Below are positions 2,494 through 25,779 of a DNA stretch of 64,000 nucleotides, piece after piece. This DNA is from Verrucomicrobiota bacterium (GTDB taxonomy: Bacteria > Verrucomicrobiota > Verrucomicrobiia > Limisphaerales > Palsa-1400), in the NCBI GenBank assembly GCA_049510745.1, contig JBEKYR010000019.1:14231-78230 (forward strand). Direction: 5' to 3'. Under the pieces are notes generated by a model. That model was not told where the DNA came from, made no database searches, and saw only the letters and a program-made list of their open reading frames with translations. The position numbers and the translations under genes are program-made. How positions within the stretch are numbered: position 1 is the first letter of the stretch; the number at the start of each line of letters is the position of its first letter.

Positions 2494-3140
2494 ACCCCGC
2501 CCTCGTTGCCGCTTTTCTAGTTCTATTGTTGACATCCGTCCCCTGCCCCGCCCAGGCGAATTCGGTTTTGCCTCACGGCGACTTCGAGCAGCCCGACCCG
2601 CGGGACCCCGCCAAGCCGGCCGGATGGGATCGCGTCGATGGCCTGGGCGTTCAGTGGATCGAGGCCCCCGACGCCGCCCACGGAAAGGCCATCCGCATGG
2701 ATACCCGCGTCAGTGAGCAGGCCATGCAGGCGCAATGGGTCAAGCGGGGTCTGACCAATTTGTGGAACATCCCCAAGCCGGAGAAAAATGCGATTGCCGA
2801 AACCTACGGCCTCTCGCTCTATTCCGACCCGATCCCCGTCAAACCCGGCCAGGCCTATCGAATTACGTTTGATTACCAGGGTCCCGACCGCGGGGCCAAG
2901 GTCTGGGTGCGCGGCTGGGGCGTGTTCCAAGGCGAAAAACGGCGGCGCTGGGAAACCACCGTCACCTGCCATTGTACGAATGGCACGTGGACGACCTGCA
3001 CCCAGGTCTTCCATCCCACGCGGGCGCGCCCGGAAGTCACCGAAATGCGGGTGATGCTCTTTGCTTATTATCCCGCGGGCGTCTCATGGTTCGACAACGT
3101 CCGCATCGCGCCAGTCAACGAGCCGGAGAAACCGAAATGA
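2490..3140 (+). CDS. Secreted protein with a carbohydrate-binding/galactose-binding-like jelly-roll domain
   Basis: Signal peptide, HGDFE start motif, PVKPGQAYRITF and WFDNVRI end motif; ATGA overlap with the upstream gene. Confidence 0.6.
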   Translation: MNPALVAAFLVLLLTSVPCPAQANSVLPHGDFEQPDPRDPAKPAGWDRVDGLGVQWIEAPDAAHGKAIRMDTRVSEQAMQAQWVKRGLTNLWNIPKPEKNAIAETYGLSLYSDPIPVKPGQAYRITFDYQGPDRGAKVWVRGWGVFQGEKRRRWETTVTCHCTNGTWTTCTQVFHPTRARPEVTEMRVMLFAYYPAGVSWFDNVRIAPVNEPEKPK

Positions 3141-5088: not shown

Positions 5089-5102
5089 AACCAGCGCGGA
5101 AA

Positions 5103-6071
5103 ATGGACGTGTTCCTCACCAGCCCGTGGATTCCCGCCGAATGGATCCGGGCGCACGGCTTGCAGCCGCGGGGCCTCTGGGCGGCGGAAAATCTCCAGGG
5201 CGGCGCGTGGCCGCTTTCCGCCGGCGACTGCGCGTTTGCGGAGGCCGTGGTGCGGTTTGCCGAGGCGCGCACGGATTCCGCCGTGATTTTTTCGACGGCC
5301 TGCGACCAGCTCCGGCGCGGCTTTGACGCCGTCGTTCTCCACGGACAGGGCCGCGCGTTTTTGTTCAACCTGCCGGCCACGTGGCAGACGGCAGCGGCCG
5401 GGCAAATTTTCCGCTCGGAGCTGGAGCGGCTGGGACAATTTCTTTTGTCCATCGGCGGCCGCGCGCCGCCGGCGGAGGCGTTGCGGCAGGACATGTTGCG
5501 TTCCAGCCGGACACGCACGCGTTTGCTCGAATCAGCGCCGGCCAGTTCTCCGCGCGGGTTTGCCGAAGCCGTGGCGCGATTTCATGGCGACGGCTCTTTT
5601 TCGCCGCCGCCGCCGGACGCGCCGACAACTCAAATTCCGCTCGCCCTTGTCGGCGGCCCGTTTCCGGCGCCGCACTGGAAATTGCTGGACGAATTGGAAG
5701 CCGCCGGCGGACGCGTCGCGCTGAACGCCACCGAAACAGGCGAACGCAGCCTGTCGCCGGCGTTTGAATTTGAGGGCGGCGCAAACCATCCGTTCGACGC
5801 GCTGGTCCGCGGCTACTGCGACCACATTATTGACGTGTTCCAGCGGCCGAACACGCGGCTTTATTCCTGGCTGAAGCCGCGGCTGGCATCCCGCCGCGTG
5901 CGCGGCATCGTGCTCTGGCATTTCACCGGCTGCGATCTTTGGCGGGCGGAGGCGCAGACGTTGCGGGAGACTTTTGGCCTGCCGGTCTTGCTGCTCGAAG
6001 CCGGCGGAGAACCGGGCGCCGCGCCGCGCGAAATCAACCGCCTCCAGGCTTTTGTGGAAACGCTCAAATGA
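5103..6071 (+). CDS. Divergent 2-hydroxyacyl-CoA dehydratase-family subunit
   Basis: WIPAEWIRAHG, DCAFAE, STACDQLRR, GCDLW and a C-terminal RLQAFVETL; shorter and with fewer Cys than 3137-4285. Confidence 0.7.
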   Translation: MDVFLTSPWIPAEWIRAHGLQPRGLWAAENLQGGAWPLSAGDCAFAEAVVRFAEARTDSAVIFSTACDQLRRGFDAVVLHGQGRAFLFNLPATWQTAAAGQIFRSELERLGQFLLSIGGRAPPAEALRQDMLRSSRTRTRLLESAPASSPRGFAEAVARFHGDGSFSPPPPDAPTTQIPLALVGGPFPAPHWKLLDELEAAGGRVALNATETGERSLSPAFEFEGGANHPFDALVRGYCDHIIDVFQRPNTRLYSWLKPRLASRRVRGIVLWHFTGCDLWRAEAQTLRETFGLPVLLLEAGGEPGAAPREINRLQAFVETLK

Positions 6072-7453
6072 ACGCTCCGCCGCGCAAATTGAACCTGGAC
6101 CAGTGGGACGACCGCTACGAGCAACTTCGGCGGGACGGCCTGCGCGAACCCGGCTACGGCGGCCCGTTGCGCCGTCATGTCGCCCGCGAGAAGGATTTCC
6201 GGCTGCAACATTTGCAGTTCGACAACTCGCCCGCCGCGCTGCGGCTCTGGAATTTTCTGCTGACGGAAAACGAGCGGCTGCACCAGGCCCGCGCCAACGG
6301 CCACAAACTTGTCGGCACGATGAAAGACCTCGGCACCGTGCCGGTCATGGCGTACGCGCTGCCGGGCATGCGGGCGTTTTATCCGGACGGCGCGTGGTGG
6401 ACGCCCTGCCTGATGGAATGCAGCGACATGCTGTTGCAACAGGCGGAAAAAATGGGCATTGACGCCTCGTTTTGTCCGGTGCGCGCGATGCTGCCGGCCT
6501 TGGTGAATGGCGGGCATTTCCCGCGGCCGGATTTGCTGGTTTGCAGCGCCGGCGCAATCTGCGATGATTTTTCCGCCATCGCGCAACGTCTGGAACATCT
6601 GGGCCATTCCATTCTTTGGTGGGAAATCCCGCGCCGCCGCCCCCCTGCTTTGGGCGAAACGGCCTGCGCGCTGCCGGGCGATCTCGCCGCGCCGAAAATT
6701 CAAGTGGACTGCGTGCGGACGGAATTGCAGCGCGTGGGCAAGGCGCTGGGTGAACTGGCCGGAAAAACCCTGGACAACGACTGTTTGGCAGCTGCGATTC
6801 GCGCGGCCAACCAAGTGCGCCGGCGGCTGGACTCGTTGCGCCGGACCGTTTATTCCGCCGCCGCCGCGCCGCTGCCCGCCCTGGAAATGCTCGTCGCGGA
6901 AATGCTCGCGCTTCATTTCTGCTCCGACCGCGAGGAAACCATCGCCGTGCTCGACGCCTTGCTGGCCGAGGTTGAAGGGCGCGCGCGGCGGAACCAGTTT
7001 GTGGTCAGCGCCAAGGCGGTACGGATTTTCTGGGTGAATCCGGTGGCGGATTTGCGCGCCATGAACTTGCTGGAAGAAATTGGCGGACGCATTTGCGGTT
7101 CGGATTACATGTTCACCCACGCCTTGGATTTGATTCCCGAGAATCTGCCGCCGCTGGAAGCGCTGGCCCGCACCGCGCTGGCCGATTTGATGGTCGGCCC
7201 GACAGCCGAGCGCGCGGCGCGCATCGTCCGCGAATGTCAGGCCAACCGCGCCGAGGCCGTGGTCGTGTCGCGCATTCCCGGCGCGAGCCACTGCGCGCGC
7301 GAGGGAAAAATCATCCTCGAAATTGTGCGGCGAAAGATCGGGATTCCCGCCCTCGAACTTGAAATTCCGCCGGTGTGCGATGCCCTGCGGCCGAGCCTCG
7401 CCTCGCGGTTGCAGGCCCTGGTTGAAACCGCCCAGGCCAGGAGGACAAAATGA
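6068..7453 (+). CDS. 2-hydroxyacyl-CoA dehydratase-family subunit
   Basis: FCPVRA, AICDDF, GASHCARE and RLQALVE end. Start at ATG 6068 overlaps the upstream stop. Confidence 0.7.
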   Translation: MNAPPRKLNLDQWDDRYEQLRRDGLREPGYGGPLRRHVAREKDFRLQHLQFDNSPAALRLWNFLLTENERLHQARANGHKLVGTMKDLGTVPVMAYALPGMRAFYPDGAWWTPCLMECSDMLLQQAEKMGIDASFCPVRAMLPALVNGGHFPRPDLLVCSAGAICDDFSAIAQRLEHLGHSILWWEIPRRRPPALGETACALPGDLAAPKIQVDCVRTELQRVGKALGELAGKTLDNDCLAAAIRAANQVRRRLDSLRRTVYSAAAAPLPALEMLVAEMLALHFCSDREETIAVLDALLAEVEGRARRNQFVVSAKAVRIFWVNPVADLRAMNLLEEIGGRICGSDYMFTHALDLIPENLPPLEALARTALADLMVGPTAERAARIVRECQANRAEAVVVSRIPGASHCAREGKIILEIVRRKIGIPALELEIPPVCDALRPSLASRLQALVETAQARRTK

Positions 7454-8241
7454 TTTGCGCCGGCATCGACGCGGGTTCGCGCTCCATCAAGGCGCTGCTG
7501 TTCGACACCGACCGGGCGCAAGTTCTTGCCTCCGGCCTGGCCGACCAGGGCGTGGAACAAGAACGCCTGGCAGCGGAACTTTTCGCGGCGCTTTTGCGGG
7601 AGGCGGGACTGGAGCGGTCGCGCGTTTCCGGCGTGGTGGCCACCGGCTACGGACGCCATGCCATCCGTTTCGCCGACACCACCATCACCGAGATCACCTG
7701 CCACGCGCGCGGCGTCCACCGGCTGGCGCCGGACGCGCGCACGATTGTCGAGATCGGCGGACAGGACAGCAAGGTCATCTGCCTCGAAGACGGCGGGCGC
7801 GTGCGCGATTTTGCGATGAACGACCGCTGCGCGGCGGGCACGGGACGCTTCCTGGAGATGGTCGCGGCGCGGCTGGACATGAATTGGGAAAAGCTGTCGG
7901 AACTGGCGCGCCAGAGCAAAAAGCCCGCGCTCATCAGCAACATGTGCGTGGTCTTCGCCGAGACGGAAATCATCGGCCTGCTGGCGGACGGCCAGCCGTT
8001 GGCGGACGTGGTGGCCGGCGTGCAAAACGCCATTGCCACCCGCGTGGGGGCGCTGGCCGGGCGGTTCGTTTCGCCGCCGGTTTATTTCACCGGCGGCGTC
8101 GCGTTGCTGGCCGGCATGGCCCGCGCGCTGGAGGAGGTTTTGGCTTGTCCGGTCCGGGTCGCGCCGCGGCCGCAATTCACCGGCGCGCTCGGCGCCGCGC
8201 TGTCCGCCCGCGCGGCCGAGCCGCCCGGCGGCGGCCTATGA
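7450..8241 (+). CDS. Acyl-CoA dehydratase activase / ATP-dependent [4Fe-4S] electron donor (HgdC/BcrAD/BadFG family)
   Basis: GIDAGSRSIK, ATGYGR, TEITCHARG, EIGGQDSK, MNDRCAAGTGRFLE, GALGAAL. Confidence 0.92.
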   Translation: MICAGIDAGSRSIKALLFDTDRAQVLASGLADQGVEQERLAAELFAALLREAGLERSRVSGVVATGYGRHAIRFADTTITEITCHARGVHRLAPDARTIVEIGGQDSKVICLEDGGRVRDFAMNDRCAAGTGRFLEMVAARLDMNWEKLSELARQSKKPALISNMCVVFAETEIIGLLADGQPLADVVAGVQNAIATRVGALAGRFVSPPVYFTGGVALLAGMARALEEVLACPVRVAPRPQFTGALGAALSARAAEPPGGGL

Positions 8242-8313: not shown

Positions 8314-9723
8314 ATGCCGGATCAAAAACAGGAATTGCTGCGAGCGCTGCCAGCCATCACTGACTTGCTGAAAAGCGAAACCGCCGCCGGCTGGCTCCGG
8401 CAACATCCGCAGCCGCTTGTGACCGAATGTCTGCGCCGCGCGCTGGCCGGATGGCGGCGGCAAATCCTCGATGACGCCGCCAGCCCTGGCGGCACGGAGC
8501 ACCTCAGCGTTGAGACGGTGCTGGCACAGGCGGAAAAATTTCTCCAGGACGCCACCGAACCGCGCCTGCGCGAAGCCATCAACGCCACCGGCATCATCCT
8601 GCACACCGGCCTGGGCCGGGCGGTTCTGTCGGCGGGCGTGGTGGATTCGATGATGGACGAGTTGAAGGGTTATTGCACGCTGGCCGTGGACCGCGCCTCC
8701 GGCGAACGCGCCGGGCGCGATGAATTGGTGGAATACATCTTGACGGAACTGACCGGCGCCGAGGCGGCCACGGTCGTCAACAATAACGCCGCTGCCACCC
8801 TGCTGGCGCTGGCGGCGCTGGCGGCGCCCAAGGAAGTCATCGTGTCGCGCGGACAGCTCATTGAAATCGGCGGCTCCTTCCGCCTGCCGGAAGTGATGGC
8901 GCAAAGCGGCGCGCGGCTCGTCGAAGTGGGCGCGACCAACCGCACGCATCTCAAGGATTACCAAAGAGCCGTCACGGAAAATACGGCGGCAATCCTGCGG
9001 GCGCATCCCAGCAATTATCGCGTCGTCGGTTTCACCAGCGAAGTCGCGCTGCGCGATCTGGCCGAACTGGCCCACGGCCGCAATTTGATTCTGATGGATG
9101 ATCTCGGCGCGGGCGCGTTGGTGGATTTGAAACGCTTCGGCCTGCCCCACGAGCCGACCGCGCGCGAATCCATCGAAGCCGGCGCGGACGTGGTCCTGTT
9201 CAGCGGGGACAAACTCATCGGCGCCGGCCAGTGCGGCGTGATCGTGGGGCGAAAGGCGTTGATTGAAAGACTCCGCCAACATCCGCTCATGCGCGCCGTC
9301 CGCGTGGACAAAATCTGCCTGATGGTTCTGGAGCGGACGCTGCACCTGTTCCGCGACCCGGCGCGGCTGGCACGCGAGCATCCGATCTACCGCATGATCA
9401 GCACGCCGCCGGAAGAGTTGAAATCGCGCGCCCAGGAACTCGCGCGCCTGATTTCCGCCGAAGCTCCCAAGGCCGGAATTGAAATCGCCGAAAGCGAGGC
9501 CTTCCTCGGCAGCGGCTCGTTGCCGACGGAGGCGATTCCCAGTTTTGTCGTGACGGTTTCCCTGCCGGAAATGAGCGCCGCCGAACTGGCGCGGAGGCTG
9601 CGGTTGGATCGCGCCTGCGTTTTTGGACGCATCGAAAACGACCGGGTCTGCCTGGATGTGCGCACGTTGACCGGCGAACAAGTGCCGGCCGTCGCCGCGG
9701 CCTTTGGCCGTCTCGTCGCATGA
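8314..9723 (+). CDS. selA: L-seryl-tRNA(Sec) selenium transferase
   Basis: INATGIILHTGLGRA, VNNNAAA, SRGQLIEIGGSFRLP, EVGATNRTH, FSGDKLIG (PLP lysine). Confidence 0.97.
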   Translation: MPDQKQELLRALPAITDLLKSETAAGWLRQHPQPLVTECLRRALAGWRRQILDDAASPGGTEHLSVETVLAQAEKFLQDATEPRLREAINATGIILHTGLGRAVLSAGVVDSMMDELKGYCTLAVDRASGERAGRDELVEYILTELTGAEAATVVNNNAAATLLALAALAAPKEVIVSRGQLIEIGGSFRLPEVMAQSGARLVEVGATNRTHLKDYQRAVTENTAAILRAHPSNYRVVGFTSEVALRDLAELAHGRNLILMDDLGAGALVDLKRFGLPHEPTARESIEAGADVVLFSGDKLIGAGQCGVIVGRKALIERLRQHPLMRAVRVDKICLMVLERTLHLFRDPARLAREHPIYRMISTPPEELKSRAQELARLISAEAPKAGIEIAESEAFLGSGSLPTEAIPSFVVTVSLPEMSAAELARRLRLDRACVFGRIENDRVCLDVRTLTGEQVPAVAAAFGRLVA

Positions 9724-11669
9724 CCGCGCTGCGCCGCCACATCATGCTCGGCACCGCCGGGCACGTGGACCACGGCAAGAGCGCGCTGGTCAAGCTGCTC
9801 ACCGGCTGCGAAACCGACACGCTGGCGGAGGAAAAACAGCGCGGCCTCACGATTGACCTCGGCTTCGCGCCCTGCCAGCTCGCGGACAAACGGGTGGTCG
9901 GGGTGGTGGACGTTCCCGGCCACGTGGATTTCATCCGCAACATGGTCGCCGGCGCGCACGGCATCGACGTGGTCATCTTTGTCGTCGCGGCGGACGATGG
10001 CATCATGCCGCAAACGCACGAGCACCTGCACATTCTCACGCTGATGGGGTTGCGCCACGGGCTGGTGGCGCTGACGAAAATTGATCTCGTGGACGCCGCC
10101 CGGCGGGATTTTGTGATCCAGGATTTGCGGCGGCTGCTGGCGGAAACCTTTTTGGCCGGCGCGCCCATTTGTCCGGTCTCCAACGTCACCGGCGAAGGCC
10201 TCGACGATTTTTTTGACGCGTTGAACCGGACCGTGGACGCGTGCGGCGACCGGCCTTGCGCCGGGCCGTTCCGGCTGTGGGTCGAGGATGCGTTCAGCAT
10301 CCGCGGCACGGGCACAGTCGTCACCGGCATTCCCACCCATGGCCGGGTTCGCCCTGGCGACGAGCTTCATCTCTTGCCCGCCGGTCTGGCCGGGCACGTC
10401 CGCCGGATGCAGGTTTATGGCGAGGACGCCGCGGAAGGAAGCGCCGGGGAATGTGTCGCGCTGAACATACCGGAACTGGAGCACGAAGCCGTCCGGCGCG
10501 GCCTGGCTCTCTGCGCTTCAAATATGTTCGAGCCGAGCATGATGGCCGAGGCGGAATTGCAAATTTTGAAATCCATCCAAACCAACATCGAGGACTACCT
10601 CGAAGTGCAACTTCATGTTGGAACCGCCTCGGTCCCGGCGCGCCTGGCGATGCTGGAAAACACCGCCATGACCGGCGGTCAAAGACAATTCGTCCAGCTT
10701 CGCCTCGCCTCACCGCTGCCGCTCGTGCCCGGGGAGCGGTTTGTGGCGCGGGCCAATGTTGCCGGCGCGGGCCTCAGCGGGCTGACGACCATCGGCGGCG
10801 GACAAATTCTCGGCTTGAGCAACGCGCGGTTGCGCCGGAAAAAACCATGGACGCTCGACCTGCTCGCCACCCGGCGCGAAGCCGTCCAGCTTCCGCTGCG
10901 CTGGTGCGAACAGATGGTGCGCGAAAGCGAATCGCCCGCCACCGTGGCCAGCCTCCAAAAAAAATGCTGGAACCGCCCGGAGGAAATCGCCGAAGCGCTC
11001 GAACGGTTGCACGCCGAAAACCGGGTGGTTCAGGCGCCTGGCGGCGGATGGATTCATCGCGCCGCGATGCAAAAGATGGCGGAGAACATTCTCGCCGCCG
11101 TCCAGACTTTTCACGCGGCCAACCCGCAACGCGCCGGCATCAGCCGCGAAGAACTGCAGGCGGCGCTCAAAGCCGATCCCGTTTTTCTGGAGGCGGCGGC
11201 GGAATCGCTGCTGGACTCGAAGCAGATCGAACGCAACGGCGCGCTCTTGGCGCGGGCCGGTTGGAACGCGCGGATTCCAGAGCGCGACCAGCGCTTGTGC
11301 GACCAGATCGCCGCGAAATTGCAGCAAGGCGGCTGCTCCCCTCCGGGCTTGGCCGAACTGGCCGCGTCGGCCAACGAGCCGCTCCCGCGCGTCCTCGCGC
11401 TGGCGCAACTGCTGGCGGAACGCGGCGTGGTGGTGCGGTTGGACGACCAGATTTGGATGCACCGCGACGCCGTGGCGGCCGGCCGGGAAACGGCCCTAAG
11501 ACTTTTCACGCGCGCGCCGGCCTTTTCCACGATGGAATTCCGCGACGCCCTCGGCGTCAGCCGCAAATTCGCCGTGCCGCTGGCGGATTACCTGGACAAA
11601 ATCCGCTTCACCGTCCGCTCCGGCAACAATCGCACGCCGGGAGCGGAAGCCAGAAAACTCTTTCCATGA
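9720..11669 (+). CDS. selB: Selenocysteine-specific translation elongation factor
   Basis: GTAGHVDHGKS, RGLTIDLGF, DVPGH, TKID and the C-terminal winged-helix motif FRDALGVSRKFAVPL. Confidence 0.97.
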   Translation: MTALRRHIMLGTAGHVDHGKSALVKLLTGCETDTLAEEKQRGLTIDLGFAPCQLADKRVVGVVDVPGHVDFIRNMVAGAHGIDVVIFVVAADDGIMPQTHEHLHILTLMGLRHGLVALTKIDLVDAARRDFVIQDLRRLLAETFLAGAPICPVSNVTGEGLDDFFDALNRTVDACGDRPCAGPFRLWVEDAFSIRGTGTVVTGIPTHGRVRPGDELHLLPAGLAGHVRRMQVYGEDAAEGSAGECVALNIPELEHEAVRRGLALCASNMFEPSMMAEAELQILKSIQTNIEDYLEVQLHVGTASVPARLAMLENTAMTGGQRQFVQLRLASPLPLVPGERFVARANVAGAGLSGLTTIGGGQILGLSNARLRRKKPWTLDLLATRREAVQLPLRWCEQMVRESESPATVASLQKKCWNRPEEIAEALERLHAENRVVQAPGGGWIHRAAMQKMAENILAAVQTFHAANPQRAGISREELQAALKADPVFLEAAAESLLDSKQIERNGALLARAGWNARIPERDQRLCDQIAAKLQQGGCSPPGLAELAASANEPLPRVLALAQLLAERGVVVRLDDQIWMHRDAVAAGRETALRLFTRAPAFSTMEFRDALGVSRKFAVPLADYLDKIRFTVRSGNNRTPGAEARKLFP

Positions 11670-13288
11670 AAATTGATTTTGCCAAACGCCGCCGCGTGAT
11701 GGAGCGGTCGCAGCTTCTGGGGCATTGCATCTGCGACGTGCAACGGCCCTGTCCGTGCGATGTGCTTCGTGAACAGAATCTTTGTCCCTGCGCCGGAGAG
11801 CGGCCTGACACGGTTGACATTTCGCAGGTGAAATTGACGCAACTGGCGCGCAATGCCGGGTGCGCCTCCAAGCTCGCACCCGCCGATTTGGACGCGCTGC
11901 TGGGCCGGCTGCCGGCGGTGGAGGACCCGGCGGTGATTTCCGGCCTGGCCGCCGCCGATGACGCGGCGATTTACCGAATGGCGGAGAACCTTTGCCTGGT
12001 GCAGACGGTGGACGTGTTCACGCCTTGCGTGGACGACCCGCGGCTCTTCGGCAAAATCTGCGCGGCCAATTGTCTCTCGGACATCTACGCCATGGGCGGC
12101 GAACCGCGCACGGCTTTGAGCGTGCTGGCGTTTCCTTCCGAAAAACTGCCGGGCGAAATTATTTTTCAAATGCTCGACGGCGCAATGGAGGTTTTCAAGC
12201 AAGCCGGCGTCGCGCTCGTCGGCGGGCACAGCATCAAGGATGATGAAATCAAACTCGGCTTTGCCATCACGGGCCTGATCGATCCCGCCGTGGCCGCCGC
12301 CCTGGATAAGCCCAATGCCGGCGACGCGCTGGTCCTGACCAAACCGCTCGGCACGGGTGTGCTGGCGTTTTGCCGCCAAATCGGGCGCGAGCATCCGGCA
12401 GGCATCGCGGCGGCCGAACTTTCCATGTCCGCGCTGAACCAGGCGGCAGCGGAGGCGATGAAAGAAGCGGGCGCGTCGGCCTGCACGGACGTCACGGGCT
12501 TCGGCCTCTTCGCCCATCTGCTGCGGATGCTGCGGCCGGGCGGACTGGGCGCGGAAATTTTCGCGGAGACGCTGCCGGCCTTCGACGGCGCGATGGACGC
12601 CCTGCGGCAAGGCGTGATTCCGGGCGCGATTGAGCGCAACCGCGAGTATGCCGGCGACGCGCTTCACGTTGCGCCGGGCGTAAACGAGGCCGCGGTGAAC
12701 CTGGGATTCGACGCGCAGACTTCCGGCGGCTTGCTGATCGCCGTTCCGCCGGAGCGGCTGGAACGGTTGCGGCAATCTCTGGCCCGGCGCGGCGCCGGCC
12801 ATTTTGTCATCGGCAAAATCGTTGCTGAAGCCGGACAGATTTATCTTTCAGCGGCCGGCAACAACACGGCGGAAATTTCAAGATTGAATTCAACCCTTCA
12901 ACCGCGGAACATTGATTCCATGACAACACCAAAGAAAAATTCCCCGCCCCGCCACGGCGATTGCTGCGCGGGCGCGGGCGAAACCGCAGCCGGTTCCGCC
13001 GCCGAATCAGAAAAGGCCTTTGACGCGCTGATCCGGTCGGTGCGATCGGCGGGCGCGCTGGATGAAAAGACGAAGGAACTTATTCTGTTCAGCCTGGTCG
13101 TGGGCAGCCGTTGTCAACCATGTTTTGAGGCGCATCTGCGCAAGGCGCGCGAACTGGGCCTCTCGCAGGCGGAACTGGACGAGGCGGCGTGGTGCGCCAT
13201 CGCCCTGGGCGGCGCGCCGGTCATGATGTTTTATCAGGAATGCCTGGAGCGGATTCAATCGGGCAAGGCGGACCGGGCGCGACCTTGA
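11666..13288 (+). CDS. selD: Selenophosphate synthetase (Cys form) with a Cys-rich N-terminal extension and a C-terminal CMD/AhpD-like domain
   Basis: LTQL..AGCASK, DDAAIY, QTVDVFTP, SDIYAMGG, GGHS, LTKPLGTG, TDVTGFGL, DAQTSGGLL. Start set at ATG 11666, overlapping the selB stop. Confidence 0.93.
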   Translation: MKIDFAKRRRVMERSQLLGHCICDVQRPCPCDVLREQNLCPCAGERPDTVDISQVKLTQLARNAGCASKLAPADLDALLGRLPAVEDPAVISGLAAADDAAIYRMAENLCLVQTVDVFTPCVDDPRLFGKICAANCLSDIYAMGGEPRTALSVLAFPSEKLPGEIIFQMLDGAMEVFKQAGVALVGGHSIKDDEIKLGFAITGLIDPAVAAALDKPNAGDALVLTKPLGTGVLAFCRQIGREHPAGIAAAELSMSALNQAAAEAMKEAGASACTDVTGFGLFAHLLRMLRPGGLGAEIFAETLPAFDGAMDALRQGVIPGAIERNREYAGDALHVAPGVNEAAVNLGFDAQTSGGLLIAVPPERLERLRQSLARRGAGHFVIGKIVAEAGQIYLSAAGNNTAEISRLNSTLQPRNIDSMTTPKKNSPPRHGDCCAGAGETAAGSAAESEKAFDALIRSVRSAGALDEKTKELILFSLVVGSRCQPCFEAHLRKARELGLSQAELDEAAWCAIALGGAPVMMFYQECLERIQSGKADRARP

Positions 13289-13400: not shown

Positions 13401-13451
13401 AAAGTTATATAAAATAAACGTTGACGTACTTCACTAAAATGGTATAACTTT
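13401..13451 (+). promoter_or_regulatory. Sigma70-type promoter of the vapBC operon with a flanking inverted repeat
   Basis: TTGACG (13421-13426), 16 nt spacer, then TATAAC (13443-13448) preceded by TGn. Inverted repeat AAAGTTATA (13401) / TATAACTTT (13443). Confidence 0.6.
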
Positions 13452-13456
13452 ATGCC

Positions 13457-13702
13457 GTGATTACAACATTTAAAACCGACACGGTTAATTTTGGCGCCAA
13501 AGGCCAGGTGGTCATCCCCCGCCGTCTGCGCAGGGAATTTGAAATTGAGGAGGGGACGAAGGCGCAGGTGTATGTTGAGAACGGCCAGATTGTGCTCAAA
13601 CCGATCACGTCGAAATTCATCAGAAGTTTGCGCGGCTCCTTGAAGGGCACCAAGGCGATGGAAACCTTCATGGCGGAACGGAAGCGGGAAAGGGAATTAT
13701 AA
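13457..13702 (+). CDS. AbrB/MazE/SpoVT-family antitoxin
   Basis: KGQVVIPRRLRREFEIEEG; directly upstream of a PIN toxin. Confidence 0.9.
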   Translation: MITTFKTDTVNFGAKGQVVIPRRLRREFEIEEGTKAQVYVENGQIVLKPITSKFIRSLRGSLKGTKAMETFMAERKREREL

Positions 13703-14103
13703 TGGCCACCAAGGTTCTGGACAGTTGGGCACTCATGGCGCTCTTCAATGAAGAACCCGCCGCCAGCGCGGTGGAAAAACTTCTGGCCCAAGCCGCTGCT
13801 GACCGGCACAAACTTTTGATGAGTGTGGTGAACTGGGGTGAAATTTATTATTCCGTGGCACGCGGAGCTTCCCGCGAAATGGCGGAACAAAAAGCCAAAG
13901 AAATTGCCGCCATGCCCCTTGAGATTGTGCCTGCCGATCTTCACCAGACTCACCAGGCTGCGATTTACAAGGCCGCGTGCAGAATGTCCTACGCCGACTG
14001 CTTTGGCGCGGCCCTGGCCAAGATCAAAAACGCAGAGTTCGTCACCGGCGACCCGGAATTCAAAGAAGTTGAGAAGGAAATAAAAATCAACTGGCTGAAA
14101 TAA
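13702..14103 (+). CDS. vapC: VapC-type PIN-domain toxin
   Basis: VLDSWAL, NWGEIYY, MSYADCF, VTGDPEF. Confidence 0.9.
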   Translation: MATKVLDSWALMALFNEEPAASAVEKLLAQAAADRHKLLMSVVNWGEIYYSVARGASREMAEQKAKEIAAMPLEIVPADLHQTHQAAIYKAACRMSYADCFGAALAKIKNAEFVTGDPEFKEVEKEIKINWLK

Positions 14104-14121
14104 TCGCAGCCCGAGAAAACT

Positions 14122-16416
14122 ATGGCATACGAAGAACTGGTCATTGATCTACTGAAGGCGGAGCGTGAGGAAGACGTTACTGCCGCGCTCACAGTCTATG
14201 GCTTGGAGAAATTCACTGATTCGAATTGGATTCCATATGGGGGAACGCTTTTTGAAAATAATTACGGATTGATAGGGACGCAACAGGCTGATTCGCTTGG
14301 CGCTCTAGTCGAAAAGGTCGTGAATTCGATTGATGCAGTTCTGATGCGGGAATGTCTAGCGAGAAACCTCGATCCCAGAAGTAATCTTGTGCCGCGAACG
14401 ATGAACGAAGCGGCTGAACAGTTCTTGAACATTCCAGAAGGCAATTTAGCCAAGCTGTCTCCAACACAACGGACAGAACTGGCCGAAAAGAATATCAGCA
14501 TCATCGTGACAGGGCAGAAGCCTGACGAAGGCAACCCATGCATCATAGTTGCTGACACCGGAGAGGGACAGAGGCCCGAAGACTTCAAAGACACCCTTGT
14601 TTCATTGCTTCGCAGCAACAAATGTTCTGTCCCGTTTGTTCAGGGCAAATTCAACATGGGCAGTACTGGCAGCCTAGTGTTTTGTAGCCCGAACAAGAAT
14701 TACCAGTTGATCATTTCACGACGTAACGCGGCAATTCCTACAGCCCGAAATTCAAAATGGGGATTCACTTTAATCAGGAAGCGTCCTCCAATGAAGAATG
14801 AGAAGAATGAGCGTTATGAATATCTCGCGCCGAAAGGGAAGATCTGTGAACTCGATCTTGATGAAATCCCAATTTTTCCAGACGCCGAAAATGTGCCCTA
14901 CAAACGCCCAATCAAATGCGGGACGATCGTAAAGCTTTACGAGTATGACCTTCCGAGAAGTATAAAGACGATGGCGACCGCAGATTTCTACCGGGCTTTA
15001 TCAACCAAGCTCTGGACGGTGGTCGTTCCGATGCGAATTTATGAGGCGCGGGGTTACAAAGGTCACACTCTTGAGAGCACGTTTTCTGGGATGAACATCC
15101 GGCTTGAAGATGACAAAGGTGACGTCCTGGAGGAAGGGTTTCCATGCAATTTTACTCTTAATATTCCGAAGGTCGGAATGGTTGATGGGCGCATTTGCCT
15201 ATTCAAAAAGGACGCCGAAATCTCACGTTGGGTAAGTTCACGAGAGGCGATCATTTACACTATTAACGGCCAGTCTCACGGCGCGCTGCCGAATGATTTT
15301 TTCCGACGCCAGTCAGTCAATCTCCCGTGGATACAGAAACAACTCTTGATCAACATTGATTGTTCGCGCCTCGACCAGCAATTGATCAACAGAATGTTTA
15401 TGACCAGTCGCGACAGGCAGCGCGATGTTCAGGAAAAAGACTTCCTAGAGTCTGCCCTGGCCGAATTTGTTCGCAAGCATCCGGGGCTTCGGGAGTGGAA
15501 CGAGCGACGCCACAGAGAAACGGTCGAGGAACAGTTCGTGGAGGAATCAGAAACGATCGAACTATTTGAAAAATTAGTAGCGCAGAATCCAGCACTCGCT
15601 GAGATTCTCGGTGTTGGTCTCAAAATCAAAGTCCCAAAGCCCGGCGAACAGCCGACTTCAAAGTTCGAAGGCCAAAGATTCCCAACGTTTTTGAAACTCG
15701 AAGACGCCCATAACAACGACGATTTCGTCAAAAAGTGTCCCCAGAATTCCTATTGTCGCGTTACTTTATTAACCGATGCGGAAAACGATTATTTGGTCCG
15801 AGCGATTGAGCCGGGGAAACTTATCATCAGACCGGAAGCATTGGTCAAGAGTACTAGCCTCTACAATGGCCGGTTGGAACTGCAACTAGCCCCGGAAAAA
15901 ATGTACGATGTTGGTCACCGTATTGAAGTAAAGGTAATGTTAACCAGCCCGAACTCGACCGAGGGCTACTTTTCAGTTCGGTTTTGGCTGGAGATCGATT
16001 CGCCAGTGCAGCCAAAGAAGAGTCCTCCCAGCCCGCCCAAGCCGCCAAAAGTAACGACCGTGGCCCTGCCTGAAATCAAAGAAATCAAAAAGGATCAATG
16101 GGCCGAGGCTATCGAAATTACTTCCGACGATGATGTCGTGAAGATAATGAAGGACAACCAAGGGACGACTTCTCTCGTGAACATGGATAATCGCCACTAC
16201 CGCCGCTATGTTTACGCCAACCCCAAGCGAGAGCAGGAGATTAGAAACCTCTACAAGATCTCATCAACAATCATGGGGCTTTGGCTGCTCGAACAGGTTG
16301 ATAAAGGTGGTCTCCAGGAGGAAAACCGAAGATCGGTGAGTAACTCACTTGGCCGGCTTCTGCTTCCTTTGGTTGATTCACTAGGGAGCAAGTTGGCTGA
16401 ATTAGAGCAAGGGTAG
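14122..16416 (+). CDS. GHKL (Hsp90/MutL/MORC-like) ATPase-domain protein of unknown function
   Basis: N-box EKVVNSIDA, G1 DTGEG, G2 GKFNMG; visibly lower GC than the flanks. Confidence 0.7.
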   Translation: MAYEELVIDLLKAEREEDVTAALTVYGLEKFTDSNWIPYGGTLFENNYGLIGTQQADSLGALVEKVVNSIDAVLMRECLARNLDPRSNLVPRTMNEAAEQFLNIPEGNLAKLSPTQRTELAEKNISIIVTGQKPDEGNPCIIVADTGEGQRPEDFKDTLVSLLRSNKCSVPFVQGKFNMGSTGSLVFCSPNKNYQLIISRRNAAIPTARNSKWGFTLIRKRPPMKNEKNERYEYLAPKGKICELDLDEIPIFPDAENVPYKRPIKCGTIVKLYEYDLPRSIKTMATADFYRALSTKLWTVVVPMRIYEARGYKGHTLESTFSGMNIRLEDDKGDVLEEGFPCNFTLNIPKVGMVDGRICLFKKDAEISRWVSSREAIIYTINGQSHGALPNDFFRRQSVNLPWIQKQLLINIDCSRLDQQLINRMFMTSRDRQRDVQEKDFLESALAEFVRKHPGLREWNERRHRETVEEQFVEESETIELFEKLVAQNPALAEILGVGLKIKVPKPGEQPTSKFEGQRFPTFLKLEDAHNNDDFVKKCPQNSYCRVTLLTDAENDYLVRAIEPGKLIIRPEALVKSTSLYNGRLELQLAPEKMYDVGHRIEVKVMLTSPNSTEGYFSVRFWLEIDSPVQPKKSPPSPPKPPKVTTVALPEIKEIKKDQWAEAIEITSDDDVVKIMKDNQGTTSLVNMDNRHYRRYVYANPKREQEIRNLYKISSTIMGLWLLEQVDKGGLQEENRRSVSNSLGRLLLPLVDSLGSKLAELEQG

Positions 16417-16592: not shown

Positions 16593-17477
16593 TCACTTTT
16601 GACACTCCTCATTAGACGTGGTTTGCGGCAGGGCAAAGCACGGTTCAATGGCGCCGCAGGTGGCGCATTCCAGGCAGCGGATGCAGCCGGAAACGTTGAC
16701 GGCCTGATCCACTTTCACACCCATCGGGCAGCGGCTGCGGCAGAGGTTGCATTCGACGCATTGCTGCGGATTGAACCGGAGATGAAACAGGCTCAACCGG
16801 TTGAAGAGCGCGAGCAACCCGCCGAGCGGACAAAACACGCGGCACCACGGCCGGTGAATGAAAAGCGCGGCCGCAAGAAAGGAGAGCAAAATGCCGCTCT
16901 TCAACCCGCTCATCAGCCAACCGTTGCCGGCAAGCAGGCTTTGCACGGAGTAAGGCACGCCGGCTTCCAGCGCGCCGGCCGGACAAAGCCGGCAAATGGA
17001 AATGACCTGCCTTTCAAATGGAATGCCGTTGAAACCCAGAATCAGCGGCAGAAGAATCACCAATCCTACCAGAACGAAGTAACGGCCGTAACCGGTCCAG
17101 GACGGCAGGATGATTTTCCGGGTGGTGATTTTGCCGAGCAAGTCCTGGAGAAAACCGAACGGACAAGCCCAGCCGCAAACGATGGAACCGCCGGCCGCGC
17201 CGACGAGCACGAGCACGCCGATCAATAAATACGGCACTTCCCCCGCCACTGGCAGCAGCGCCGCGTAGTTGGCCATCACACCCACCGGGCAGGCGAAGGC
17301 CGAGAGCGGGCACGAGTAACAGTGGAACACGCAGCCGGGAATGCCGTGCAGCCACCGGCCCAGCGGCGCGAGCCACAGGCCGAGAAAACCGGTTTGCACC
17401 CAGGGACGCCAGCGCGAGAGTTTTCGTCCGAGCGCCGCCGGCTTCCATTCAGGGCAATTGGGAACGGGACATTCCAT
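16593..17477 (-). CDS. Membrane-bound polyferredoxin, 4Fe-4S binding protein (NapH/YccM-like)
   Basis: HCYSCP, CPVG, CGWACPFG, CRLCPAG, WCRVFCPLG, CVECNLCRSRCP, CIRCLECATC, with TM segments. Confidence 0.88.
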   Translation of the reverse strand: MECPVPNCPEWKPAALGRKLSRWRPWVQTGFLGLWLAPLGRWLHGIPGCVFHCYSCPLSAFACPVGVMANYAALLPVAGEVPYLLIGVLVLVGAAGGSIVCGWACPFGFLQDLLGKITTRKIILPSWTGYGRYFVLVGLVILLPLILGFNGIPFERQVISICRLCPAGALEAGVPYSVQSLLAGNGWLMSGLKSGILLSFLAAALFIHRPWCRVFCPLGGLLALFNRLSLFHLRFNPQQCVECNLCRSRCPMGVKVDQAVNVSGCIRCLECATCGAIEPCFALPQTTSNEECQK

Positions 17478-17487
17478 GGGAACAGGT

Positions 17488-17506
17488 CGGCCACGCCACG
17501 TGGCCG
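17488..17506 (-). promoter_or_regulatory. Candidate SECIS hairpin for the CPTU protein
   Basis: 7-bp perfect stem; GUGGC loop starts 21 nt after the UGA. Confidence 0.7.
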
Positions 17507-17510
17507 GAAT

Positions 17511-17885
17511 TCATCTTATTCAGGTGGGACAGGGCGTTTTTGCGCCGAGGTCCACGCGGATTTTCCACGCCGGCGGCTGGGTATGGGCCTGTTGTTTGGC
17601 CCAGCGGTCAAGCGCCTCGCCGGGATTGGCCACGGCATCGAGTTTCGGCGGCGGCGGCGGCGCGACTTGGTCCGGGTATTGCAAACCGCCGGAGGAGAAG
17701 GCTTTGACCAACTGCGTTTCCCACGCCGTGTTTCCGTCCGTGGTGTCCACGTTGGTCAGATGCCGCGCGCCGCTAAACAGCAGCGCCGCGCCGGTCAGCG
17801 CGACAACCAAGCCGGACCAGAAATCGTGGTCTTCCCGCGCGCGCGACGCGCGATTGACCGGTGGCTGGGGGACTCGCTTGAACAT
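17511..17885 (-). CDS. Putative small single-TM selenoprotein ending C-P-T-U-I-R (Sec at UGA 17522-17520)
   Basis: ATG 17885 lies just downstream of selC; one hydrophobic helix. The UGA completes a CxxU motif and is followed by hairpin CGGCCAC-GTGGC-GTGGCCG. The next in-frame UGA (17513-17511) is taken as the stop. Confidence 0.7.
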
Positions 17886-17903
17886 GCTACGGATTGGGGA
17901 AAA

Positions 17904-18000
17904 TGGCGGAGGTGGATGGGAATCGAACCCACCTGGGACTTTGTTGAGTCCCACGCTGGTTTTGAAGACCAGGAGCGCCACCAGGTCGCCCCACACCTCC
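17904..18000 (-). tRNA. selC: tRNA-Sec (UCA)
   Basis: 97 nt, GGAGGTG...CACCTCC-GCCA. Anticodon arm CTGGT-CTTCAAA-ACCAG, long variable arm TGGGACT/AGTCCCA, TTCGATT T-loop. Confidence 0.97.
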
Positions 18001-22326: not shown

Positions 22327-22376
22327 ATACGGATTGATATTGCAGTAAGCCCTTCGATTTGCTAATAGCCTGTCTA

Positions 22377-24476
22377 ATGGCAAAGCAAAAGACTGGTGGC
22401 TTATCATGGCGCTGGCTGGGAACCGCCGGGGTGGCTTGCTGGACGTGTGCGCTGTTGGTTGTGCTTTGCTCGGAAAACAGGCTTCGCGCGGCTGATTCTC
22501 TTCTTTCCGGTTCTCCGTCCTCAAACGCCGTCATGGCTGCGCTGGAGTATCAGGAAACAGACTCTGGCGTCATCAACTGGGGCGTTTCCCTGACGCCGCG
22601 GACCAGTCCTTTCAAAAAAGAGCCGGCGGCGGCTTCGGGCAAAATCATTCGCGGCGTTTTGAATTTCGGCGCCGATTCCAGCAACTCCATTCCCTTTCTC
22701 TGGCAGTGCCAGGCGGGAAAACTTTACCTCGACCTCAATCGCAACCAGGATTTGACCGACGATCCCTCCGGCCTGTTCTTGGCGCGCGCCGCGAAGCCGG
22801 ATAATTACCAGACCTTTGCGAACGTCCACCTGCTTTTCAACACCGCTTCCGGCAGGTGCCGGGTGCTGGCGGACCTCTCCTTCTGGGACTACAGTGCGCC
22901 GCCAATTTGCAGCTTCGCGGTGCGCTCGTTCTGGCAAGGCAAACTGAGGTTGCAAGGGCGGGATTGGCAGGTGGGCATCGTCCCGAATATCCTGGACCGA
23001 TCGGGCTTGTTCGAGAACAGCCGGTTGCTGCTGCGTCCCTGGGATAAACGAAGCCAGCCGTTCAACGCGGATGATGGGTTGCTCGCCACTGTTCCCTTCT
23101 CGCGGAAACTTTTTGTGGATGGCCACGCCTATCAACTGGAGTGCGTCGCCCGTTCGCAAGACGGCGAAGCCAGGCCCGCGCTCCAATTCACGGAACAATC
23201 CGTCGCGCTGGGCGAAGTGAAAATCACCGGCCAATTCATCCGCCGCCTTGTTCTGCAGGGCGAGGCGTTCCTGGTGGTGCTCGATCAGCCGGCAGGCGTC
23301 GTGAAAATCCCGGCCGGCAGCTATCACCAGCCCGAGATCCTGCTCGAACAAGACGGCGTCGCGGCCTTCTCCCGCAATTCCGGCCAGTGGCAAATTGGCC
23401 GGCAGATTTCCGTGCGCGACAAGGCACAGGTGGCATTGAACGCGGGCGGGCCGTTGACCAATTCCGTCGCCACCGGCCGCCACGGTCAGGATTTGCGTCT
23501 GGATTATTGCCTGCTCGGCGTGGGCGGCGAAACTTACCAACTGGCCAGGCAAGATCGCTCCAAGCCGCCGGAGTTCGCGGTTTACAAGGGCGGAAAAAAA
23601 ATCGCGTCCGGCAGATTTGAGTTTGGCTGAGGCAACACCTGCTCGCACTCATGGCGAGTGCCTCTCACCGCCGGCGGCAAACTGTCCCTTGTGGCTTCGT
23701 CCGACCTCGGAGCGCTCGGTGCGAAGGAAGGTCCGGCGGTCATCTACGACTGGGTGTTGCCCAGCCTGGCGCCGCTGTTGCTGCCGTGGCTGGTCATTCT
23801 GGGATTGCTCACCTTGAAACGGAATCGTTGCGCGGCCGCGTGGTGGATTTGGCTGCCGCTCGGATATGTGATCGCGTTTACGTTGGCGCCGCTGGACATC
23901 ATGCCCGCGGGAACAGATTTTTTCCTGGATGTCATCGCGGCGCTGGCGGCGGGGCTGGGCGCGGTCTGGCTCCTGACAGATTATCTCCGGCGGCCACATC
24001 GGTTCGTTACGTTTCTGTGCCTCCTGCTCGCCTTGGCCGGTTTCAGCGCGCTGGCCTTTGTGTCCGCACAAAGCTGGAGTTTCACGTCGGAAACATTTGT
24101 GGCCGGCATCGTTCTGGCCGTGGGCGTGGTGGTCAGTGCGGTGGCGTTGAGTCTGGCCGGGCTGATCTGCCGCGGCCGTTATCGTCGCGTCGGCCTTTAT
24201 GGGTGGCTGCTCCTCTTGCTGGCCGTCATCTGGCTGGTGATCACCGGGCCTTTCTTTTTGTTCGCGCTCATCGCTTCAGGCGGAAGAGTGTCTTGGGGCG
24301 GATTCTTTGTTCCCGTTTTTGCGTTGGTGACGCTCCATTTCGCCACCCTGCTGCCGTTCCTGATCCTGTCCTCGGCCAGCCCGTTTTACCGCCAACGGCT
24401 CAAGGCCCTGCTGCACGTCACACCGGAAGCGCCGCCCGTGCTGGCGCCTTTGCCGGATGCCGGTTTAAAAACTTGA
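22377..24476 (+). CDS. Putative exported, membrane-anchored selenoprotein (FEFG-U-GNTC; Sec at UGA 23628-23630) joining track ORFs 22359-23630 and 23658-24476
   Basis: The two ORFs share a frame and are separated by a single UGA with no other stop. The read-through motif matches the paralog at 24508, and a hairpin follows. Architecture is an N-terminal hydrophobic segment, a soluble domain and a multi-TM C-terminus. Confidence 0.8.
23645..23661 (+). promoter_or_regulatory. Candidate SECIS hairpin
   Basis: GCACTC-ATGGC-GAGTGC; loop starts 21 nt after the UGA. Confidence 0.75.
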
Positions 24477-24507: not shown

Positions 24508-25779
24508 ATGAAACTTTCCAAACAACTGTTCCTGGCCGGAATGGTTCTCGCCGGCGCCGCCTTCGCGCAATCCGAGCAATGGCTGGAATACCACACCGGC
24601 GCCGAGGGCCGCGCCTACCAGCAGGTGGAACTGACCACCAATCCGCCCCCCGGCGTCGCTCTGCCGAAGTTCAATGCGCCGCCCTATTTCGCCCGCTGGC
24701 TCACGCCGATGGACCCCGCCGGCGGGCGCTGGCTCTGCCTGGACCGCACGCGCAAGTCCGGACCCTATGACCGGCTGTTCTTTGACAACAACGGCAATGG
24801 CCGGCTGGACGACAAATCGCCCCTCCCGGCGCGGCTGGATTCCTCCTTCGCCTATTTTCCGCCAGCCCGCGTTGTGTTCAAGGGCGAGGACGGGCCGATC
24901 ACCTATCATCTTGTCTTCCGCTTCTATCAATACGAAAAGAATCCCCCGCAATTGCTGGCCTCCTCCGCCGGCTGGTATGAAGGTCTGGTCAATTTCGACG
25001 GCGCGAAAAAGCGCATTCAACTCATCGACGGCAACGTCAACGGCACGTTCAACGACGTCGCCCCGGACCCGTATGACTGCGACCGCGTCCAAGTCGAGGG
25101 CGACAAGACCAGCGAACGGTTTTTGGGCCGGATGCTGGAAGTGGACGGGAAGTTTTACCGGATCGAAGCCGCCCGCGACGGCGCGTTCGTCAAAGTGCAG
25201 AAGGCGGAGAACGTCACCCTCGGCCAGGTGCGTGTGCCGGAAAACATTTCCGAATTCGCCGCCTTCGGCCCGAACGGCCATTTCGTGCGCACACCGGCGG
25301 ACGGCCAATTCACCTTGCCGGCGGGCCATTACCGGATTTTCCACTGGACGATCAGCCGCAAGGATGAAAAGGGCGCGCCGTGGACGCTCTCAGGCTATAA
25401 TTTTCCCAAAACCGCCACCTTCGAGGTCGCCGCCGATAAGACCGCCTTGGTGCAAATCGGTGAGCCGGTGCAAGCCGTGCTCAAGGCGGCGGAGGGCGCC
25501 AAGCGTCAAGTCGATTTCAGCCTCAGCTTCGTGGGCCGGCAAAAGGAATCCATCGAGATGCTGTGCGACGGCCAGCGCCCGCGCGGGCCGAAATTGACGT
25601 TGGCCAACAGCGACGGGACGCTGTGTTATACGAACACTTTCGAGTTTGGATGAGGCGGCGTTTGCTCGCTCTCATGGCGGGAGCCTAAAAATGTGCGGCG
25701 TCCGTTGGTTGGCGGCGTCAAAATTTTCAGCCCGTTCCAGGTGCTGACGAGTCCGTTGACGCTCGCGCCAAAAAAATAA
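24508..25779 (+). CDS. Putative secreted selenoprotein (FEFG-U-GGVC; Sec at UGA 25651-25653)
   Basis: Signal peptide ending AFA. Read-through adds GGVCSLSWREP...APKK and ends at TAA 25779, 12 nt before the next ATG. Has a DNNGNGRLDD loop resembling the paralog's DLNRNQDLTDD. Confidence 0.8.
25668..25684 (+). promoter_or_regulatory. Candidate SECIS hairpin
   Basis: GCTCTC-ATGGC-GGGAGC; loop starts 21 nt after the UGA; compensatory changes relative to 23645-23661. Confidence 0.75.

Follow-up and report, generated by a model that had tools for sequence, protein, structure and literature searches.

A candidate selenocysteine-tailed small membrane protein and its NapH-like polyferredoxin neighbor in a selenocysteine locus of Limisphaerales

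A stretch of 64,000 nucleotides from a Verrucomicrobiota bacterium of the order Limisphaerales (assembly GCA_049510745.1, contig JBEKYR010000019.1, positions 14,231 to 78,230), hereafter the window, was analyzed around selC, its gene for the selenocysteine (Sec) tRNA. The minus strand holds the whole array of interest, i.e., the tRNA-Sec, a small open reading frame (ORF), a hairpin, and a polyferredoxin gene, in this order (Table 1). A spacer of 18 nt (17903-17886) separates selC from the small ORF, which starts with ATG at 17885. The ORF runs to ...GAKTPCPT (17523) and is followed by TGA ATA AGA TGA, so that with Sec the product would have 124 aa. The polyferredoxin gene starts eleven bases past the hairpin. 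An earlier note, made from the letters of this DNA, had described the layout as selC, 18 nt, a small protein with a single transmembrane (TM) helix ending CPT-UGA-IR-UGA, and a NapH-like partner, and this description was correct in every detail.

The small gene was collected from all sources, and 58 distinct loci were left after duplicate removal. The sources were 10 same-family relatives, 31 species-representative genomes, 7 metagenome contigs, 27 genomes of a sample of the order, and 1 unlinked copy. The seven metagenome contigs represent a lineage with only about 30% identity. The codon after Cys-Pro-Thr was TGA in all 58 loci and in none of them TAA or TAG, and the C-terminal CxxU motif that the earlier note had proposed was thus found to be conserved. 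The Cys codon was TGT in 34 loci and TGC in 24, and both Pro and Thr were encoded by four codons. The next in-frame stop was placed exactly two codons on in 57 of the 58 loci (Sec-x-x-stop), and this terminal stop drifts, i.e., TAA in 34, TGA in 21, and TAG in 3. Of the two tail codons, the first was ATA, ATT, ATC, ATG, GTG, GTA, or CTG and the second AAA, AAG, CAC, or AGA, with variation mainly at the third position. A metagenome pattern that permitted TGA, TAA, TAG, or TGG after CPT returned seven stretches, and all seven had TGA. The TGA-after-CPT pattern is far beyond chance. Judged from these alignments, UGA codon 122 of the small ORF is very probably read as Sec, and the gene very probably encodes a genuine selenoprotein. 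In one locus (L045, 4001-4520), the small ORF spans all three frames through two apparent frameshifts and still ends TPCPT-TGA-IK-TAA; this copy is an assembly error or a decaying copy.

The hairpin starts 13-14 nt past the UGA, just beyond the real stop codon of the predicted selenoprotein. In the window, its minimum free energy (MFE) was -15.9 kcal/mol, with a z-score of -3.04. The family consensus has a stem of 6-7 bp and the loop R-Y-G-G-C; over the loci, the stem measures 6-8 bp, the loop 3-5 nt, and the UGA-to-loop distance 20-21 nt. In the family of the window itself (32 distinct loci), the proposed stem of seven pairs was formed in 94.6% of the alignment cells, against 20-53% when the 3' partner was slid. 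Four of the seven pairs had changes on both sides, and none of 500 shuffles reached the covariation score. The stem variants GGCCAC/GUGGCC, GGUUGC/GCAACC, GCAGUC/GACUGC, and GCCAUC/GAUGGC were all found with the loop R-Y-G-G-C. A covariance model built from the 32 loci located the element in 18 loci from other families (E <= 1e-5), immediately past CPT in each. In the model-fitted alignment, 95.5% of the cells were paired and 6 of the 7 pairs had double changes, although this alignment leans towards the model.

A published model of the bacterial Sec insertion sequence (SECIS) has a loop of 3-9 nt, a stem of 4-16 bp, a UGA-to-loop distance of 16-37 nt, and an MFE of at most -7.5 kcal/mol, and it also requires G at the first two loop positions (PMC13188914). 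The hairpin lies within the loop size, stem length, spacing, and energy limits of this model, and in the window (loop UGG) it also agrees with the rule on the G positions. Comparison of the loci demonstrates both the predicted recoding and the SECIS-like element.

Screening the genome for UGAs that follow 60 or more open codons and precede a YGG-loop hairpin yielded 169 hits. Two hits in the window share one architecture, i.e., a 14-nt spacer, a 6-bp stem, and the loop AUGGC (UGAs at 23628 and 25651). These two UGAs, which serve as an internal control, have conserved downstream sequence and carry the same hairpin type as the small gene. SelB of this organism evidently uses this hairpin type. 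The idea that the small protein is the only selenoprotein of the genome was rejected, since the screen added these two. A possible fourth selenoprotein gene with this SECIS type was seen elsewhere in the genome (G000, contig C20, minus strand, index 35192), where a UGA with 90 open codons before and 46 after it is followed, 13 nt downstream, by a hairpin with a 7-bp stem and the loop AUGGC. No in-frame TGA was found in the FdhA, CMD, AhpC-TSA, Redoxin, and Thioredoxin matches of this genome, and Rdx had no match.

The UGA might also be an ordinary stop. The protein would then end at Thr121, and the hairpin would be a regulatory, processing, or coupling element for the polyferredoxin gene. All gene callers end the protein at CPT, in most loci 11-14 nt separate the hairpin from the start of the polyferredoxin gene, and TGA is the commonest stop in the window. 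However, TGA is common there and not fixed (21 of 30 long ORFs, with 6 TAA and 3 TAG), whereas after CPT it is unchanged in every locus while the next stop drifts among three codons. With an ordinary stop, the fixed two-codon distance and the codon-like variation of the tail would lack a reason. Moreover, the same hairpin type follows the two window UGAs that are demonstrably read through by comparison. The Sec machinery is also present, i.e., selC, selA, selB, and selD in the window, and tRNA-Sec, selD, and selB in G036, the genome with a distant copy; wherever it could be checked, the small gene was confined to genomes with this machinery. An ordinary stop is considered very improbable.

The small protein is composed of an N-terminal PQPP motif, a TM helix (residues 22-40), a folded domain of 80 residues, and the Cys119-Pro-Thr-Sec122 tail. 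The AlphaFold2 model, a confident one (pLDDT 88.4), showed an extended N-terminus, the helix at 22-40, a small alpha/beta domain, and a free tail. In a collection of 5.8 billion proteins, 336 homologues were found, of which the best 120 all end with CPT; the source-named homologues are annotated as hypothetical and cut at CPT. When 1.84 billion representatives were searched with a profile, 89 hits were obtained, i.e., 68 ending with CPT, 3 with CHT, CYT, or CRT, and 18 that were fragments, frameshifted, or unrelated. Over 45 diverse homologues, only P8, C119, P120, and T121 were invariant, and Q7, R15, E18, and G39 were nearly so. The column entropy by codon position (0.487/0.375/0.881) is a coding signature.

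No family match to the small protein was found among the Pfam and NCBIfam models. PDB sequence searches with the small-protein and polyferredoxin profiles gave no match, the fold search with the small-protein model had a best E of 1.3 and no solved relative, and the ESM Atlas gave no usable match. In a phylum sample of 401 genomes, almost all outside the order, only two chance-level matches were obtained, both inside long ORFs. The module lies in one order of Verrucomicrobiota, and the record titles name Limisphaerales and 'subdivision 3'. In an inventory of 119 prokaryotic selenoprotein families published in 2026, the entries examined carry a domain identifier, mostly of Pfam or NCBIfam (PMC13188914). 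The literature search found no description of the family, although a mention in Haft and Tolstoy 2025 is possible. The small protein very probably represents a new selenoprotein family with a new fixed partner, within a selenium module not described before.

The nearest likeness among known selenoproteins is the UXX-star type (NF041114 and NF041211), which, as listed in Table 1 of the inventory, likewise has Sec three residues from the C-terminus and the SECIS past the stop (PMC13188914). Because of the Sec-x-x-stop ending, both look complete when cut at the UGA. However, the small protein differs in its membrane anchor, the invariant Cys-Pro-Thr before Sec, and the fixed polyferredoxin partner. 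The window small protein and the G036 copy matched neither UXX-star nor other NCBIfam models at E <= 10, except for one chance hit.

The polyferredoxin has about four TM helices and two C-terminal 4Fe-4S motifs. In an alignment of 26 sequences, the invariant Cys residues were C49/C53/C56/C63, C101/C105 (CX3CP), C162/C165, and C212/C216 (CX3CP), together with the 4Fe-4S residues C240/243/246/250 and C265/268/271/274. A role in electron transfer between the membrane or cytoplasm and partners in the periplasm is ascribed to the NapH, NosR, and MauN families. These proteins (Fer4_5, TIGR02163, NF046105) resemble the polyferredoxin in having about four TM helices, two CX3CP motifs at cytoplasmic helix ends, and two 4Fe-4S motifs. 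However, the polyferredoxin scored far below the curated cut-offs, i.e., 44.5 bits against 213.05 for TIGR02163, 33.4 against 234 for PRK09477, and 45.3 against 1000 for NosR. It also has six extra invariant Cys residues in predicted outward loops and a putative selenoprotein partner. Its annotated neighbors included no nap genes, and no nap, nos, or mau operon context was seen nearby.

Each of the 32 distinct related loci has the small gene followed by the polyferredoxin gene. Of 61 relatives, 11 have the small protein, and a polyferredoxin orthologue at E <= 2.6e-160 was found in the same 11 and in no other. The pair is also present in a twelfth genome, G036, from a different family, with 48% identity in the polyferredoxin and, directly upstream of it, a divergent small ORF that terminates in ...AACPT-TGA-GGG-AGC-TAA. 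When 401 genomes of the order were sampled evenly, the polyferredoxin was found in 27, all 27 had the small protein, and the two genes were adjacent in 26. The small-protein profile matched 25 genomes, all within the 27, and the other two have divergent CPT-TGA ORFs directly upstream. No genome of this sample had the small protein alone. In G564, the small gene and its hairpin are on a different contig from the polyferredoxin. The pair spans at least 13 families of GTDB. The NapH-like 4Fe-4S neighbor pointed out in the earlier note is thus an obligate genomic partner as far as comparison can tell, and the two proteins are likely to be a functional pair.

In the window, the small ORF and the polyferredoxin gene are in the same frame and both stops after CPT are TGA, which would allow read-through of both stops into a single fusion protein. 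The earlier note had remarked on this shared frame. The remark is right for the window, but it fails as a sign of a fusion, since the relative frame was 0 in 16, +1 in 11, and +2 in 5 of the 32 distinct loci. The gap between the genes ranged from 27 to 563 nt, and the second stop was TAA or TAG in 37 of the 58 loci. Because the frame and the second stop differ among relatives, the shared frame is incidental and the fusion is refuted. Runs of a short tandem unit (aaggctr) lengthen the spacer between hairpin and polyferredoxin to 121-563 nt in L002, L003, L008, L027, and L031.

The two further UGAs of the window belong to paralogous genes, here called FEFG-U after the motif at the UGA. The sequence after the UGA, GxxCSxSWRxP, is conserved between the paralogues, and neither protein had a family match in Pfam or NCBIfam. 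Homologues with one in-frame TGA inside a full-length match were found in 11 of the 61 relatives. Of the 401 genomes in the order sample, 24 have a member of the family, which almost always contains one TGA. From these comparisons, the paralogues probably form another unannotated selenoprotein family and are candidates for export. Operons of the Tso and SAO kind likewise keep several selenoprotein genes of obscure function together in one lineage (PMC13188914). The Tso (TsoA, B, C, X, Y) and Sao models of NCBIfam did not match the small protein or the two FEFG-U proteins.

The FEFG-U family follows the pair closely. It was found in 11 of the 12 pair-positive relatives and in none of the 49 others. 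In the order sample, both were present in 20 genomes, the pair only in 7, FEFG-U only in 4, and neither in 370. Candidates for the exported selenoproteins that the earlier note had supposed are present in the window, and their family co-occurs with the pair in 20 of 27 genomes against 4 of 374. G036 has kept all three parts, i.e., the pair, the sel genes, and the FEFG-U gene, although each is on a contig of its own (C11, C12, and C48).

Table 1. Coordinates of the genes and elements discussed, numbered from the first nucleotide of the window.
Feature	Position	Strand	Details
selC (tRNA-Sec)	17904..18000	-	Anticodon TCA, CCA encoded; ARAGORN and Rfam RF01852, 70.7 bits (gathering score 47)
Small candidate selenoprotein gene	17511..17885	-	121 codons to ...TPCPT, predicted Sec-UGA 17522-17520, Ile-Arg, terminal TGA 17513-17511
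SECIS-like hairpin	17488..17506	-	3' untranslated region of the small gene, CGGCCACG-UGG-CGUGGCCG
NapH-like membrane polyferredoxin	16593..17477	-	294 aa, ATG 17477, stop 16593; Pfam Fer4_5 E 2.8e-13
selA	8314..9723	+	TIGR00474 E 1.2e-161, above cut-off
selB	9720..11669	+	TIGR00475 E 1.3e-95, above cut-off
selD-AhpD/CMD fusion, Cys-type	11831..13288	+	TIGR00476 E 1.7e-95; CMD/ahpD_dom matches; ends approximate (start codon)
FEFG-U protein 1 (candidate selenoprotein)	22359..24476	+	UGA 23628-23630, ...RFEFG-U-GNTCSHSWR...; polytopic C-terminal membrane part
FEFG-U protein 1 hairpin	23645-23661	+	GCACUC-AUGGC-GAGUGC, 14 nt past UGA
FEFG-U protein 2 (paralogue, candidate selenoprotein)	24508..25779	+	UGA 25651-25653, ...TFEFG-U-GGVCSLSWR...; signal-peptide-like N-terminus by eye
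FEFG-U protein 2 hairpin	25668-25684	+	GCUCUC-AUGGC-GGGAGC, 14 nt past UGA

The topology was predicted from charge. The content of Lys and Arg (K+R) was higher in the flank before the helix than after it in 37 of 45 small-protein homologues. Following the positive-inside rule, this bias would keep the N-terminus in the cytoplasm and expose the domain and the tail on the other side. For the polyferredoxin, the mean K+R was 4.85 at the N-terminus, 0.0 in loop 1, 3.08 in loop 2, 1.85 in loop 3, and 4.58 after helix 4. This alternation would put both CX3CP motifs and both 4Fe-4S motifs inside, and C49, C53, C56, C63, C162, and C165 would be located in outward loops.

Taken together, we give a probability of roughly 0.6 to the reading that the Sec-tailed membrane protein is the fixed partner of the polyferredoxin in a transmembrane electron relay. 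We infer four elements of this reading: how the proteins lie in the membrane, how the electrons flow, that the tail is redox-active, and what it acts on. The N-terminal helix would anchor the small protein, with the conserved PQPP..R..E.R segment in the cytoplasm and the folded domain and flexible Cys-Pro-Thr-Sec-x-x tail outside. Electrons would enter the polyferredoxin at the two cytoplasmic 4Fe-4S clusters and would cross the membrane via its invariant Cys-Pro motifs. The Cys119-Sec122 selenenylsulfide on the tail may then become reduced by the polyferredoxin. The tail could act as a swinging reductant for extracytoplasmic targets, most plausibly the co-inherited exported FEFG-U-GxxC selenoproteins. 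For the narrower claim that the pair is a redox relay, the chances appear evenly balanced, and the FEFG-U proteins are only tentatively proposed as the targets of the tail. The earlier note had suggested a selenium-dependent relay of this kind that could reduce exported selenoproteins, and its interpretation is supported in part.

Similar ways of working are known. Animal thioredoxin reductase has a flexible C-terminal Gly-Cys-Sec-Gly tail that carries electrons from a buried redox center to substrates. The tail of the small protein is alike in mode, as its Cys/Sec pair could shuttle electrons, and there is no homology. However, it sits on a separate membrane-anchored polypeptide, its motif is CxxU and not CU, and the presumed donor is an iron-sulfur protein and not a flavoprotein. 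Through the DsbD and CcdA relays, reducing power from the cytoplasm reaches redox proteins on the outer side of the membrane. The pair is likened to them by its proposed working only; no such Pfam match was found, and the donor would be iron-sulfur instead of thioredoxin.

The Sec machinery of the window is placed on the plus strand and includes a SelD of Cys type fused to an AhpD domain. The SelD domain (11831-12754) and the CMD domain (13007-13228) contain ...NAGCASK... and ...CQPC... (CxxC), and a CC motif was seen in the linker between SelD and AhpD. Many relatives, as well as the distant lineage from metagenomes, have selD-AhpD and selB directly after the polyferredoxin gene in convergent orientation. 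An AhpD domain after a Cys-type SelD was found in all 10 pair-positive SelD loci and in none of the 13 pair-negative ones, 10 of which have an in-frame TGA in SelD (SelD loci L085-L108). On the other side of the pair, 28 of the 32 distinct related loci have selC on the same strand, 12-452 nt ahead of the small-gene start, and 19 of the 27 loci of the order sample have it within 1.5 kb upstream. Comparison thus demonstrates co-inheritance of the putative pair with the Cys-SelD-AhpD machinery. Together with FEFG-U, these genes are, by their distribution, a cohesive co-inherited module, the counts not being a statistical proof.

The placement of the pair within the sel locus also gives rise to the main rival explanation, i.e., selenium acquisition. 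The Cys/Sec tail would capture oxidized or elemental selenium as a mixed selenosulfide, and electrons from the polyferredoxin would yield selenide for SelD-AhpD. The pair would then be a part of the Sec machinery and not its user. The linkage to selC on one side and to the convergent selD-AhpD and selB on the other fits this explanation, as does the strict association with Cys-SelD-AhpD, the pair-negative genomes having mostly Sec-type SelD. It also fits that, according to a 2026 review, prokaryotes have no known transport system with specific, high affinity for selenium (PMC13188914). However, selenoprotein genes are often found in clusters with sel genes, which makes linkage by itself weak evidence, and in G036 the pair is on a different contig from selD and selC. 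A selenium-uptake component that itself depends on selenium would be circular. The conserved set includes no transporter, and nothing in the sequences is specific to selenium chemistry. Selenium acquisition is therefore regarded as unlikely. In its fullest form, the pair would be a dedicated reductase, the missing front end of a self-contained, co-inherited module of selC, selA, selB, Cys-SelD-AhpD, the pair, and the exported selenoproteins, and this is less likely again. If it were true, the Sec of the tail would be irreplaceable by Cys because it handles selenium itself, and prokaryotes would have, in this reductase, their first described system specific to the uptake or reduction of selenium.

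Metal or metalloid handling was considered as another rival to the electron relay. The C-terminal Cys-x-x-Sec would bind a soft metal (Hg, Cu, or As), and the polyferredoxin would serve as a membrane metal reductase. CcoG, a related polyferredoxin, reduces copper in this way, and Cys-Pro motifs are typical of metal sites. The 2026 review regards the Sec near the C-terminus of the SaoB, SaoC, and UXX-star families as a possible metal ligand and links many of the selenoproteins discovered recently to Hg or As (PMC13188914). However, no mer, ars, or cop genes were seen in the conserved neighborhood, and no hidden Markov model match to the metal-binding selenoprotein families of NCBIfam was obtained. 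A metal role is held to be improbable.

Several observations weigh against the electron relay and the parts it is built from. For the recoding, no Cys aligned to Sec was found, as none of the 89 profile hits in the 1.84 billion representatives runs past CPT. The usual criterion of Sec/Cys alignment is inapplicable because there is no Cys-containing homologue. In most relatives, the hairpin loop is A-Y-G-G-C with the Gs at loop positions 3-4, so the G rule of the published model is followed loosely (PMC13188914); this shift disappears where the first and last loop bases pair, as in the window. Only small portions of the stretch were present in six metatranscriptome runs. Contigs from four of these runs, 90-95% similar, spanned parts of the tRNA and of the polyferredoxin gene and left the small ORF uncovered. 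As to the module, selA was found in 21 of the 61 relatives and 12 of these 21 are without the pair, so that the pair is not needed for Sec use as such. Furthermore, 7 of the 27 pair-positive genomes had no detected FEFG-U and 4 genomes had FEFG-U without the pair; several of these discordant genomes are 57-89% complete.

The physical pairing and the topology must be weighed in the same way. Complex prediction lent the pair weak support, with an ipSAE of 0.58 against 0.00 for the best control. Of 80 solved complexes, 58 reached this mark, as did 2 of 110 mismatched pairs. However, the values at 0.60 or under comprise only 7 of the 80 solved complexes and both passing mismatches, and the score is in this weak band. 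The runs agreed in at least 81% of their contacts, the partner pLDDT was at least 65, and no interface was reported. The AlphaFold2 model of the polyferredoxin had a pLDDT of 40.4 and was unusable. The co-occurrence counts overstate the support because related genomes are not independent, and a single locus, inherited or transferred, could account for much of the linkage. The predicted topology of both proteins has charge bias as its single basis. Residues 57-79 of the polyferredoxin are hydrophobic enough for a helix, and it is possible that such a helix would shift C49-C56 to the cytoplasmic side.

Some other features of the window were observed. The interval between selD and the polyferredoxin gene is interrupted by a low-GC insert at 13450-16416 (3.3 kb; GC 0.48 against about 0.63), which is absent from the relatives. 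It carries ORFs of 167 aa (minus strand) and 764 aa (plus strand), the larger with a weak HATPase_c_3 match (E 0.006), and neither a PADLOC match nor flanking direct repeats were found for it. Immediately upstream of selA, at 2972-8241 on the plus strand, there are double-cubane-cluster reductase-like genes, a class I methyltransferase gene, and an acyl-CoA dehydratase-type activase gene. Two ORFs on the plus strand resemble, by eye, a small heat-shock or GvpH-type protein (51559-52080) and a GvpF/L-type gas-vesicle protein (59513-60292), and the TGAs checked near 51559-60292 seem to be ordinary stops.

The existence of this family has meaning for the annotation of selenoproteins. Hundreds of database entries appear to belong to a missed selenoprotein family, being recorded as hypothetical proteins cut at CPT. 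Methods based on Cys homologues (PMC12013277) are expected to miss such a family because the Sec is near the end and no Cys form exists. A Sec that is never replaced by Cys is unusual and is suited to asking what selenium does beyond sulfur. The fixed pair would also offer a two-protein system for studying how the widespread and poorly understood NapH-like membrane iron-sulfur proteins hand over electrons. For the order itself, two kinds of Sec system are suggested, i.e., one with Sec-type SelD and one with Cys-SelD-AhpD, the membrane pair, and the candidate exported selenoproteins. The latter points to an unrecognized selenium-dependent process in the cell envelope of abundant soil and peat Verrucomicrobia.

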